From UHGV virus genome UHGV-1704341: a stretch of 12,853 bases of DNA; one strand, written 5' to 3'. How positions within the stretch are numbered: position 1 is the stretch's first letter; every line of letters begins with the position of its first letter. The notes beneath the pieces are model-generated. The model worked only from the letters and a program-made list of their open reading frames with translations. It searched no databases and was not told the DNA's origin. Below are positions 491 through 6,978 of this stretch, in pieces. A program made the translations under genes and the position numbers. This DNA is from a virus.

Positions 491-1165
491 TTAGGTCTTT
501 ATTTTGTATCTTCTTGGTTTTCCCGAGAAAATCACTGTACCAATTATAGAGCAATTACCGTTGATCTTAATGTAAGGTTCAGGCCAGTTTGGGTTTAATG
601 CTTTGAGGTAACGCTGTGTTCCATCTTCTATCAACCGCTTGAAGGTGGTTTCGCCTGTATCGTGCATCAATGCAATAACGTCGTCACCGTGGCAGGCAGG
701 GACTTCAGGATCAACAAAAATCATGTCTCCTGGGCGGTACTCATCAATCATTGAATCACCAATCACCCGCAAGATATAAGTCATTTCACCACAGGGTACA
801 GGGCAGGGATAAGTTTCTGCTGTGCTCAAATCAACCTCAGAATAACCAACTTCTTTCCATGCTCCGGCCTGTACCCATGATATGACAGGGACTAACGTTA
901 TTTGTTTGTTAGTGATTGAAACATCAGGTTTTTTTGTGATGTTCGTTGTCTGGTGTTCTTGATCAAGCCATCCGACAGGCAGGTCGAAACATTTTTCGAT
1001 GTGCCGTGCCATGCTGTCACCGATATTTTTAGTTGCACCATCTCCCATAAACCTGCTGGTCTGGGTCGGCTCGCGATCAATCATGGTGGCAAAGGAAGAA
1101 TTCCCGCCAACACCATCTCTCAGTTTTCTGGCGTTAGACCGCCGGATGTCATGGACGGATGTCAT
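491..1165 (-). CDS. CI-type phage repressor (N-terminal DNA-binding region plus C-terminal S24 LexA-like peptidase domain)
   Basis: 224-aa ORF. C-terminal half carries the S24 autocleavage signature (VIGDSM, then an ...IFV.P... block) typical of CI/LexA/UmuD. N-terminal part ends ...LPVGWLD as in phage repressor HTH domains. Divergent to the Cro-like gene across an operator region. The start codon lies inside a 13-bp tandem duplication (see findings). Confidence 0.88.
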   Translation of the reverse strand: MTSVHDIRRSNARKLRDGVGGNSSFATMIDREPTQTSRFMGDGATKNIGDSMARHIEKCFDLPVGWLDQEHQTTNITKKPDVSITNKQITLVPVISWVQAGAWKEVGYSEVDLSTAETYPCPVPCGEMTYILRVIGDSMIDEYRPGDMIFVDPEVPACHGDDVIALMHDTGETTFKRLIEDGTQRYLKALNPNWPEPYIKINGNCSIIGTVIFSGKPRRYKIKT

Positions 1166-3307: not shown

Positions 3308-3790
3308 ATGAGCCTTTTGAATGACGTTCAGAAATTCATTGAAGCCCATCCGGGGTGTACTTCCGGAGACATTGCGGATGCTTTTGCAGGTTACTCACGG
3401 CAGCGCGTTCTGCAGTCAGCAAGCAAGTTACGTCAGAGTGGGCGTGTGGCTCACCGTTGTGAAGGGGATACACGCAGACATTTCCCGCGCCAGGCTGAGA
3501 TATTGCAGGAGCCGGAACCAGTTTGTGAAACCAGACCTGTGCGCAATTTCTATGTCGGCACTAACGACCCCCGGGTGATTTTGTGCCTGACCCGCCAGGC
3601 TGAAGAACTGGAGTCCAGGGGCTTATTCCGTCGAGCTGCAACGGTGTGGATGGAGGCATTCCGTGAAAGCCACTCCCAGCCAGAACGAAACAATTTTCTG
3701 GCGCATCGTGAGCGGTGCTTACGGAAAAGCAGCAAGCGCGCTGCATCGGGTGAAGAGTGGTATCTGTCAGGGAATTACGTGGGGGCTTAA
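3308..3790 (+). CDS. Hypothetical protein in the position of a helicase loader (possible winged-helix N-terminus)
   Basis: ATG 3308 follows a G-rich SD-like stretch (aggggg) and sits 3 nt after the O stop. 160-aa product shows no recognisable similarity to lambda P or DnaC-type loaders. Stop overlaps the next start (TAATG at 3788-3792). Confidence 0.55.
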   Translation: MSLLNDVQKFIEAHPGCTSGDIADAFAGYSRQRVLQSASKLRQSGRVAHRCEGDTRRHFPRQAEILQEPEPVCETRPVRNFYVGTNDPRVILCLTRQAEELESRGLFRRAATVWMEAFRESHSQPERNNFLAHRERCLRKSSKRAASGEEWYLSGNYVGA

Positions 3791-4443
3791 TGAGTAATAA
3801 ATATTGCCAGGCGCTGGTGGAACTGCGGAACAAACCAGCCCATGAACTGAAGGACGTGGGCGATCAGTGGCGCACGCCGGACAACATTTTCTGGGGAATT
3901 AACACCCTGTTTGGCCCGTTTGTTCTGGATCTGTTCACTGACGGTGATAACGCCAAATGTGCTGCGTATTACACGGCGGAAGACAACGCGCTGGCGCATG
4001 ACTGGTCAGAACGTCTTGCGGAGCTTAAAGGTGCTGCCTTTGGTAATCCCCCATACAGCCGCGCCAGTCAGCATGAGGGGCAATACATCACCGGCATGCG
4101 TTACATCATGAAGCATGCCAGTGCCATGCGTGATAAGGGCGGGCGCTATGTTTTCCTGATCAAAGCTGCCACCAGCGAAGTTTGGTGGCCGGAAGATGCA
4201 GACCATATTGCTTTTATTCGCGGGCGTATTGGTTTTGAACTGCCTGCCTGGTTTATCCCGAAGGATGAGAAGCAGGTGCCGACAGGAGCGTTCTTCGCTG
4301 GTGCTATTGCTGTTTTCGACAAGACCTGGAAGGGACCGGCAATCAGCTACATCGGGCGCGATGAACTTGAGGCATGTGGTGAGGCCTTTCTGGCGCAGGT
4401 TCGCCAGCAGGCGGAAAAACTGGTCAGGGAGATGGCGGCATGA
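3790..4443 (+). CDS. Phage-type N6-adenine DNA methyltransferase (Dam family)
   Basis: Contains ...W.TP...F... near the N-terminus, NAKC..YYT, and the catalytic motif FGNPPYS, which are typical of phage Dam-like methyltransferases. Translationally coupled on both sides. Confidence 0.75.
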   Translation: MSNKYCQALVELRNKPAHELKDVGDQWRTPDNIFWGINTLFGPFVLDLFTDGDNAKCAAYYTAEDNALAHDWSERLAELKGAAFGNPPYSRASQHEGQYITGMRYIMKHASAMRDKGGRYVFLIKAATSEVWWPEDADHIAFIRGRIGFELPAWFIPKDEKQVPTGAFFAGAIAVFDKTWKGPAISYIGRDELEACGEAFLAQVRQQAEKLVREMAA

Positions 4444-4766
4444 CGACGTTAACTCAATGCCAGCAGCAGGTGCTGGATATGCTGATTTCTTACCAGAAAG
4501 AACGTGGCTTCCCGCCAACCAATCAGGAGGTGGCAACCATGCTGGGATACCGTTCAGTGAATGCAGCGGTGGAGCATCTTCGCGCACTGGAGAAAAAAGG
4601 CGTCATCACGATAAAGCGTGGCGTGGCCCGGGGGATCACGCTTCATACCGCAGTGAAGGACGACGACAGCGAAGCGGTCGGTATCATCCGCGCACTGCTT
4701 GCCGGTGAGGAGAACGCTAGGTTGCGTGCAGCCCACTGGTTACATGAGAGGGGCCTGAAAGTATGA
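4440..4766 (+). CDS. LexA N-terminal DNA-binding-domain-like protein lacking the S24 peptidase domain
   Basis: Residues 1-70 align with the E. coli LexA DNA-binding domain as I recall it (LT.RQQ.V.D.I....G.PPT..E.A..LG.RS.NAA.EHL.AL..KGVI.I..G..RGI.L), including the recognition-helix core NAA.EHL. The product is only 108 aa and its C-terminal tail is unrelated to the LexA catalytic domain. Confidence 0.65.
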   Translation: MTTLTQCQQQVLDMLISYQKERGFPPTNQEVATMLGYRSVNAAVEHLRALEKKGVITIKRGVARGITLHTAVKDDDSEAVGIIRALLAGEENARLRAAHWLHERGLKV

Positions 4767-5152
4767 AGTTGATCCTTCCTTTCCCGCCCAGTGTGAACAC
4801 GTACTGGCGACACCCCAACAAAGGGGCATTTGCTGGTAAGAGCCTGATAAGCGAGGCGGGGCGAAAATTTCAGAGCGCGGCGTGCGCAGCAATAGTTGAG
4901 CAGTTACGTCGTCTGCCGAAACCAACGTCGGCACCTGCTTCAGTGGAGATCGTGTTGTTTCCTCCGGATAACCGGATCCGCGATCTGGACAACTATAACA
5001 AGGCTCTGTTTGACGCCCTGACCCACGCGGGTGTGTGGGAAGACGACAGACAGGTGAAAAGAATGCTGGTGGAGTGGGGACCGGTTATCCCGAAAGGGAA
5101 GGTCGAGATCACTATCAGTAAGTATGAGAAACCGGCGGGTGCAGCCGCCTGA
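4763..5152 (+). CDS. rusA: RusA-family Holliday junction resolvase
   Basis: 129-aa product with the RusA-like N-terminus (LPFPPSVNTYWRH) and the conserved acidic block (RDLDNYNKALFDALT...W.DD.QV). Typical nin-region gene. Confidence 0.85.
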   Translation: MKLILPFPPSVNTYWRHPNKGAFAGKSLISEAGRKFQSAACAAIVEQLRRLPKPTSAPASVEIVLFPPDNRIRDLDNYNKALFDALTHAGVWEDDRQVKRMLVEWGPVIPKGKVEITISKYEKPAGAAA

Positions 5153-5982: not shown

Positions 5983-6978
5983 GTGAACGTGAGAGCACTA
6001 CTGACCCCTGAAATTGCCCCGCGTATGGGGATCGTATTGTTCAGACCAGGTTCAGAGCTGATGCCCCTGTTTATGCAGGGGCGTGTCCTGCTGGAGCCTG
6101 AGCCGGAACGTTATTCATCTTTCGCCAGTGGTGCCGTTCCGGCGGCATCACAACCGCTGGCGGATGATCCTGCCGTTCGGGCCGTGTTCCGCAATGAGGC
6201 AGTGATCCGTCGTGCTGGTGGCGTGGAATGTCTTGAAAGCTGGTTACTTCGTGAAAAAGGCTGCCAGTGGCCTCATTCCGACTGGCACAGCGAGAACATG
6301 ACCACAATGCGACACGCGCCGGGCGCAATCCGTCTGTGCTGGCACTGCGATAACCAGCTGCGCGATCAGTTCACGGAACGGCTGGAATCAATGGCAACGG
6401 ATAACTGTGCCCGCTGGGTGTTGTCTGTTGTGCGTCGGGATCTCGGTTTTGATGACAGTCACGTTGTGACAATGCCGGAACTGTGCTGGTGGCTGGTTCG
6501 TAATGATCTGGCGGATGTCTTACCGGAAAGCGCAGCCCGTAAGGCACTGAGATTACCGAAGCCTGTTGTGCCATCTGTCACCCGGGAAAGTGACCTTGTG
6601 CCTTCGGTTCCTGCCACCAGCATCATCCAGGATAAAGCGAAAAAGGTGCTGGCGCTGAAAGTGGATCCGGAGTCGCCGGAGTCTTTTATGTTACGCCCCA
6701 AACGTCGCCGCTGGGTTAACGAAAAGTACACGCGCTGGGTTAAGACACAGCCGTGTGCATGTTGTGGAAAGTCTGCTGATGATCCCCACCACCTGATAGG
6801 CCACGGTCAGGGGGGAATGGGTACAAAAGCGCATGACCTCTTTGTGTTGCCTTTGTGCAGAAAGCATCACGACGAGCTGCATGCGGATACCGTGGCATTT
6901 GAAGAGAAGTATGGCTCCCAGTTGGAGCTGATATTTCGTTTTATCGATCGTGCGCTGGCAATAGGCGTACTGGCGTAA
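5983..6978 (+). CDS. DUF968-like (YdfU-like) nin-region protein with C-terminal Cys/His-rich motif
   Basis: 331-aa ORF with a GTG start directly after the upstream stop. C-terminus CACCG...HHLIGHG...LCRKHHDELH resembles the DUF968/YdfU family found upstream of Q in lambdoid prophages. The exact start is uncertain. Confidence 0.55.
   Translation: MNVRALLTPEIAPRMGIVLFRPGSELMPLFMQGRVLLEPEPERYSSFASGAVPAASQPLADDPAVRAVFRNEAVIRRAGGVECLESWLLREKGCQWPHSDWHSENMTTMRHAPGAIRLCWHCDNQLRDQFTERLESMATDNCARWVLSVVRRDLGFDDSHVVTMPELCWWLVRNDLADVLPESAARKALRLPKPVVPSVTRESDLVPSVPATSIIQDKAKKVLALKVDPESPESFMLRPKRRRWVNEKYTRWVKTQPCACCGKSADDPHHLIGHGQGGMGTKAHDLFVLPLCRKHHDELHADTVAFEEKYGSQLELIFRFIDRALAIGVLA

Follow-up and report, generated by a model that had tools for sequence, protein, structure and literature searches.

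Introduction

Phage regulators that consist of a LexA DNA-binding domain only are a known kind, and stand-alone LexA domains are frequent among phages at large. In the Bacillus thuringiensis tectivirus GIL01, the truncated LexA homologue gp6 binds the palindrome GaCACAnnTGTGaC, which overlaps the −35 element of a late promoter, and activates that promoter. A different link between LexA and phage development has been described for the Gifsy prophages, where a LexA-controlled module of dinI and an antirepressor triggers induction (PMC3121763). Here, we describe a gene at positions 4440–4766 of a 12,853-nucleotide stretch of the virus genome UHGV-1704341 (the window), whose 108-residue product carries a LexA-type DNA-binding domain and a short helical tail and lacks the LexA protease domain. 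Tentatively, we favor the view that it may serve as a LexA surrogate insensitive to RecA, which would silence LexA-controlled promoters again while the phage grows lytically.

In Escherichia coli, induction of the SOS response is what drives prophages to be induced, Shiga toxin to be released and stress mutagenesis to occur. If an uncleavable repressor is supplied just as host LexA is destroyed, the gene would be a widespread, unstudied modulator of SOS and prophage competition; if the protein serves an operator of its own instead, GIL01 gp6 would have a second, independent counterpart in which phages have put a captured LexA domain to new use. Public annotation already lists both the gene and its domain. 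What distinguishes the subfamily is its helical tail, the presence of LexA-like recognition residues in a lambdoid subfamily, its constant position 5′ of RusA, DUF968 and Q, and, in one clade, an operon with a LexA box and dinI.

A LexA-type DNA-binding domain without the autocleavage domain

The original prediction, made from the sequence alone, held that the first ~70 residues of the product align with the winged-helix N-terminal domain of LexA and that the S24 peptidase/dimerization domain is missing; profile searches and structural comparison bear out both statements. The Pfam profile LexA_DNA_bind (PF01726) matches residues 1–65 over its entire length (profile positions 1–65 of 65; E = 2.9e-19, 69 bits at a gathering cut-off of 23.7 bits), and a phmmer search of the PDB aligns residues 2–70 with residues 2–70 of the E. 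coli LexA N-terminal domain (1LEA, E = 6.5e-16). An AlphaFold2 model of the protein (predicted local distance difference test, pLDDT, 82) has the LexA topology of three helices and a two-stranded wing (helices 6–22, 28–35 and 40–52; strands 56–58 and 66–68). It superimposes on LexA in the LexA–DNA complex (3JSO_B) with a root-mean-square deviation of 1.0 Å over 68 columns at 50% identity, and reaches a template modeling score of 0.88 against 1LEA.

The chain ends at residue 108, a Pfam search of it gave no match to the S24 peptidase (PF00717), and the catalytic Ser/Lys dyad is absent. In line with this, the NCBIfam lexA equivalog TIGR00498 is matched at profile positions 1–91 of 203 only, with 70.5 bits under a curated cut-off of 110.95 bits. 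Because the autocleavage/dimerization domain is absent, the protein is unable to cleave itself. Full-length agreement is found with PHROG 362, annotated as ‘transcriptional repressor’ (E = 1.6e-59, residues 1–108 on profile positions 1–106 of 106), and a defense-system search with PADLOC returned a weak, irrelevant match only.

An identical or near-identical gene, annotated as ‘LexA family transcriptional regulator’ and nearly always intact, is present in 2233 of 5426 complete E. coli genomes. It is also found in 51 phage records, among them Stx2a-, Stx2c- and Stx2k-converting phages, and in SfV (as orf42, ‘unknown’), SfII, SfIV, mEp460, mEp390, the cdtI phage and phage 1720a-02. The comparisons below draw on a script-based survey of 152 loci with a family member, which are phylogenetically redundant: the distinct proteins among them number 121 and group into seven clusters at 62% identity. 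A scan of genome contigs returned mostly true lexA genes, and a scan of viral sequences with P0191 gave no match.

A conserved helical tail in a complete protein

After a short linker of low confidence (residues 71–75), the model continues into two further helices, with a pLDDT of about 87 in this stretch. The apolar positions L86, L87, A93, A97, W100 and L101 of this tail are conserved: among the 121 distinct sequences, position 86 is Leu in 96 and Met in 23, A97 is kept in 119, L101 in 114, and position 100 is Trp in 87 and Phe in 24. In the 69 alleles of the largest clade, the ratio of nonsynonymous to synonymous substitution rates (dN/dS) amounts to 0.21 in the domain and 0.20 in the tail, so both halves are kept by selection. 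With its conserved apolar face, the modeled helical hairpin is a putative self-association element that stands in for the lost LexA C-terminal domain. When joined to foreign dimerizing helices or a zipper, LexA(1–87) works as a repressor. On its own, the N-terminal domain of LexA reportedly still represses uvrA, and in the cell the cleaved LexA fragment is said to be removed by ClpXP.

Could the gene be the broken end of a longer repressor? The original prediction had named this as a way in which it might fail, if relatives turned out to encode a full-length LexA-like protein. The relatives are equally short and have the same tail: close ones in E. coli, Citrobacter, Salmonella and Hafnia measure 104–108 residues, and an exhaustive profile-free scan found relatives at 40–53% identity with ~105–135 residues (one called at 165) that align end to end and keep the tail. 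A truncated lexA-like fragment is ruled out by these stable lengths and the conserved tail. That the gene is a functionless, decaying remnant of a captured lexA is likewise hardly credible. Its identity of about 50% to gammaproteobacterial LexA suggests capture from a host, but the dN/dS of about 0.2 in both halves, the stable length over all distinct sequences, the intact state in nearly all of the 2233 genomes, a good ribosome-binding site and the start/stop overlaps with the neighboring genes speak against decay.

A trace of its origin may persist in the tail. HMMER extends the LexA alignment such that LLAGEE (residues 86–91) falls on the LexA cleavage region VAAGEP, with A88–G89 on A84–G85, a hint that a captured lexA was truncated to give the present gene. 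Over the 121 sequences, the Ala-Gly pair varies (position 88, S in 67 and A in 27; position 89, G in 83 and D in 23), and for this reason LLAGEE is no functional cleavage site. The same alignment through A84–G85, together with the TIGR00498 match that reaches profile position 91, would be compatible with a pseudo-substrate or decoy role, in which LLAGEE occupies the active site of host LexA or cI in trans and slows their cleavage. However, other clades read MIDDQP or MIAEEP at this place, the stretch is predicted to be helical, unlike the strand-loop of LexA, and the alignment posteriors are low; we consider such a role very improbable.

Some members depart from the simple architecture. P0133 (222 residues) and P0134 (141 residues) carry two tandem LexA DNA-binding domains on one chain and are possibly single-chain ‘dimers’. 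Rare open reading frames (ORFs) that fuse Dam to the LexA domain (P0023, P0092, P0098 and P0120; PF05869 plus PF01726, 168–185 residues, 1–7 member sequences each) probably reflect frameshifts that let translation run on across the ATGA junction.

Most LexA contact residues are retained

LexA contacts DNA through S39, N41, A42, E44 and E45 (PMC3091678). The recognition helix encoded in the window reads SVNAAVEHLRAL, compared with SPNAAEEHLKAL in LexA; S39, N41, A42 and E45 are kept, and E44 is replaced by V. Over the family, S39 and N41 are found in all 121 sequences and A42 in 116, and further near-invariant positions are H46 (120/121), K53 (121/121) and the wing residues R64, G65 and I66 (120/121). 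E45 is kept in 83 sequences, the window's included. Judged by these residues, the helix of the window's clade fits a LexA-like recognition of half-sites, with drift possible in other clades.

SOS boxes accompany the gene in a sister clade

Where, then, could such a protein bind? As the original prediction had reported for the intergenic regions, there is no clean CTGT-N8-ACAG box; the number of exact boxes is zero anywhere in the window. One-mismatch boxes number 9 versus 4.75 expected, which is not significant, and all lie within ORFs. The family loci taken together look different: they hold 91 exact boxes in 1.5 Mb versus 23 expected, with a sharp peak 500–750 bp upstream of the gene. When the spacing between half-sites was varied, 8 alone was enriched (41 distinct sites versus about 2 at other spacings), and other spacings or orientations of the CTGT/ACAG half-sites gave no clear signal in the family loci.

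The boxes of the upstream peak have the canonical form TACTGT-N8-ACAGTA and are confined to one clade (32 of 35 loci) and to the locus L017. In L015 (5500–6000) and L017 (5490–6000), a terminator hairpin is followed by a −35/−10 promoter with the canonical box, and the box recurs at the same upstream position in the other box-bearing loci (L044, 4250–4900, and 30 others). At least in part of the clade (L044 and L023), the first gene past it encodes a homologue of DinI (Pfam DinI, E = 1.1e-23). The order in the operon is the SOS-box promoter, the dinI homologue in some loci, a small protein of PHROG 1813, which is a candidate antirepressor, the LexA-domain gene, sometimes RusA, then DUF968 and Q. 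The immunity repressor of L015 is short and has no S24 domain, and the window's own clade features no box, no dinI gene and a cleavable cI. Going by its promoter sequence, the LexA-domain gene is thus itself SOS-regulated in part of the family, and the LexA boxes of the sister clade tie the family to the SOS circuit.

The same counts bear on a second explanation, namely that the protein is a phage-specific regulator with an operator of its own, similar to GIL01 gp6, whose drifted domain represses or activates a phage promoter and leaves the SOS regulon untouched. The precedent is real, as gp6 is 44% identical to the host LexA domain and yet binds GaCACAnnTGTGaC and activates a late promoter; the recognition-helix positions 44 and 45 vary within the family, and the PHROG 362 label of a transcriptional repressor would suit such a role as well. 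On the other hand, S39, N41 and A42 vary no more than they do in LexA, and no half-site spacing other than 8 is clearly enriched in the family loci. A search of the window for an operator yielded no candidate, although this absence is weak evidence with 12.8 kb searched: its inverted repeats are probable immunity operators (407–445 and 1194–1272), presumed origin iterons (2657–2719) and a CRP-type site. The gp6 palindrome is not above chance in the window (6 two-mismatch matches versus 7.4 expected), and its sole intergenic match (7902–7915) overlaps the perfect CRP-type site. A regulator with a private operator is the main rival to a LexA surrogate, but we regard it as somewhat unlikely.

Further SOS boxes were seen elsewhere in the family loci. 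A canonical box lies inside the cI-type (S24) repressor gene of L002 (3105), L009 (1838), L153 (2123), L074 (1432), L080 (1501), L066 (1205), L049 (1533) and L111 (1220). It occupies the same place in each, at about codon 75 of the ~231-residue form, where it is encoded by T-V-x-x-N-S (aCTGT-N8-ACAGt), and it is kept in these eight diverged alleles despite differing middle bases; the window's cI does not have it. This suggests that LexA may bind within the repressor gene of some lambdoid phages. AT-rich boxes (CTGTAAAAATAAACAG, CTGTTTTTATATACAG and CTGTAAATTTAAACAG) occur 3′ of Q, within the lysis region or close to it, as in L015 (10166) and L017 (8741), and, in loci of clusters 2 and 3, +2400 to +5000 away from the LexA-domain gene; one in L017 is located just 5′ of an N6_N4 methyltransferase gene. 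Boxes of this type past Q may control LexA-regulated morons.

A conserved position in the early-right operon

The window covers the region from immunity to terminase of a temperate lambdoid phage resembling SfV and e14, with 95–96% identity over 66–74% of its length to the Escherichia phages vB_EcoM-689R6 and SKA5 and 94.6% identity over 56% of its length to SfV. Its gene order is cI (YmfK type, S24, minus strand), cro, ymfL, a replication protein, a PerC-like protein, the Dam methyltransferase, the LexA-domain gene, RusA, a KilA-N protein, DUF968 (HNH-like), Q, the lysis genes, an HNH endonuclease and terminase (Table 1).

Table 1. Features of the window discussed in the text, with positions counted from its first nucleotide
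Feature	Position	Strand	Evidence or remark
LexA-N-terminal-domain protein gene	4440..4766	+	108 residues, ATG start; product identical to RefSeq WP_000210154.1
LexA-type winged helix-turn-helix domain, residues 1–69	4440..4646	+	Pfam PF01726, 1LEA alignment, model/Foldseek match to 3JSO
Recognition helix VNAAVEHLRALEK, residues 40–52, after S39 (LexA: PNAAEEHLKALAR)	4557..4595	+	Alignment, model
Two-helix C-terminal tail, residues 75–103 (helices 75–87 and 93–103), putative oligomerization element	4662..4748	+	Model, conservation, dN/dS
Ribosome-binding site AGGGAG	4426..4431	+	8 nucleotides 5′ of the ATG, read from the sequence
ATGA, LexA-domain start codon over Dam stop codon	4440..4443	+	
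ATGA, LexA-domain stop codon over RusA start codon	4763..4766	+	
Dam N6-adenine methyltransferase, upstream neighbor, variable across the family	3790..4443	+	
RusA Holliday-junction resolvase, downstream neighbor	4763..5152	+	
DUF968/HNH-like protein (YdfU family), most constant downstream companion	5983..6978	+	
Q-type antiterminator, end of the early-right operon	6992..7744	+	
cI-type repressor (YmfK-like), S24 peptidase PF00717 match	491..1165	−	The phage's own RecA-cleavable switch

Across the surveyed loci, the gene on the upstream side can be that for Dam, a cytosine methylase or a replication protein. On the downstream side, 126 of the 152 loci have RusA within 1.5 kb, and in 112 its start overlaps the stop codon or is at most 10 bp from it; DUF968 lies within 4 kb in 144, and Q is next in line in every locus inspected. 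This order holds across phages that differ in immunity, replication and Q types. RusA is absent beside the gene in 24 loci with room for it, and one clade has no adjacent RusA, so that the arrangement looks like a conserved ‘nin-region’ module and not an obligate pair.

The constancy of this order, with its frequent stop/start overlap and its persistence among otherwise differing phages, is the argument for viewing the protein as a DNA-binding accessory to the recombination/replication module, which would, for example, target or restrain the RusA and DUF968 nucleases and would not be a transcription factor. We think this improbable. Lambdoid ‘nin’ regions typically keep their gene order, which need not imply physical partnership, the 24 loci without adjoining RusA do not fit, and the residues conserved are those with which LexA makes sequence-specific contacts. 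DUF968-Q modules without a LexA-domain gene also exist, presumably including ydfU-quuQ of the K-12 prophage Qin, which counts against an accessory role.

Three other elements of the window were noted. TGTAC/GTACA palindromes on both sides of cI (407–445, 1194–1214 and 1236–1272) probably serve as the operators OL and OR in this type of immunity. Inverted repeat units of the type GTCAAAATCTGAC within the replication-protein gene (2657–2719), which coincide with an SDPSK/SDASK peptide repeat, are presumably origin iterons. Finally, TGTGAtcttcaTCACA at 7892–7907, overlapping 7902–7915, is a perfect CRP-type consensus (1 found versus 0.03 expected). It lies 3′ of the Q gene and of a terminator-like hairpin (7842–7861) and about 30 bp 5′ of an ORF of 67 codons (7937–8140) between Q and the holin that has no annotated function and may be a cAMP-CRP-controlled moron.

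Discussion

How might a LexA domain without its protease serve a temperate phage? By analogy with lambda, we expect the lysogen to keep the gene silent and induction to switch it on. The protein would then be made only after induction or infection, at a time when activated RecA has destroyed host LexA. Self-associating via its tail and via LexA-type domain–domain contacts on DNA, it would occupy CTGT-type SOS operators with the LexA recognition residues S39, N41, A42 and E45, and RecA would be unable to inactivate it. Its targets would be host SOS genes and the LexA-gated modules of co-resident prophages; in the sister clades, the gene's own LexA-box promoter would be a target as well, resulting in negative feedback. 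Of the roles named in the original prediction, an uncleavable repressor at SOS-box-like operators and a regulator of phage genes both stay candidates, whereas a dominant-negative competitor of LexA is a poor fit: because LexA represses by operator occupancy, whichever protein occupies the site, an occupant of the same box would itself repress, and the protein has no C-terminal domain with which to poison LexA dimers.

Several points weigh against a surrogate of LexA. The entire window contains neither an exact CTGT-N8-ACAG box nor a convincing near-match. LexA E44 is kept in none of the 121 sequences, where the position is always A, V, F or T, and about 30% of members have A or L in place of E45, some of them behind perfect LexA boxes, so the binding specificity may have drifted in the family. 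Because members with E45 changed to L also sit behind perfect boxes, the boxes of the clade can be explained by host LexA alone. The model has a predicted template modeling score of 0.56, and dimerization through the tail is something we infer. GIL01 gp6, the sole characterized phage protein with only a LexA domain, binds a different site and activates, and in the literature we found no expression or binding data and no functional study of the family.

Extended to its full consequence, a RecA-insensitive LexA surrogate would mean that lambdoid prophages in about 40% of E. coli genomes, Stx2 phages included, once induced make a RecA-proof LexA surrogate with which the host SOS regulon is shut again and the LexA-gated antirepressor modules of rivals are locked. 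This broader claim is doubtful at present. If true, the protein would act against both the SOS response and competing prophages, and could affect the hierarchy among prophages, the output of Stx phages and SOS mutagenesis under antibiotics.

Finally, we would like to place the protein among the systems it resembles. With the N-terminal domain of E. coli LexA (1LEA, 3JSO) it shares the fold, about 50% identity, S39, N41, A42, E45 and H46, and the wing residues R64-G65-I66. Unlike LexA, it has no S24 domain, no Ser/Lys dyad and no conserved Ala-Gly, carries a non-glutamate in place of E44, and scores below the lexA equivalog cut-off. The autoregulation of LexA has no counterpart in the window, where no SOS box precedes the gene, whereas boxes are present in 32 of the 35 sister-clade loci and in L017. 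In its architecture of a LexA domain and a short helical element without protease, the protein resembles engineered LexA-zipper fusions.

GIL01 gp6 is likewise a phage-encoded LexA DNA-binding domain only, to which the 108-residue protein adds a 40-residue tail. The two differ in that the gp6 motif is not enriched in the window and in that there is no close sequence kinship beyond the domain, with no Bacillus phage among the relatives listed. The window phage also has a Q antiterminator for its late genes, and since it does, a late activator of the gp6 type is not obviously needed here.

The LexA-controlled module of the Gifsy prophages is matched by the 35-locus sister clade in its LexA-box promoter, its dinI homologue, present in part of the loci, and its small protein, and in L015 and L017 a terminator precedes the box, as in Gifsy. 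The LexA-domain gene is an additional member of the operon, unmentioned for Gifsy in the passages of that report used here (PMC3121763). An uncleavable LexA domain would weaken SOS signaling, as would DinI.

Most widely, the domain-only architecture is shared with the stand-alone proteins of PHROG 362 and BFVD, such as those of Mycobacterium phage Wildcat and the Tectiviridae, which measure 65–150 residues, are widespread and are mostly uncharacterized. Unlike these stand-alone LexA_DNA_bind proteins of other phages, the proteins described here are set apart by their tail and their RusA/DUF968/Q neighborhood, which define an enterobacterial lambdoid subfamily.

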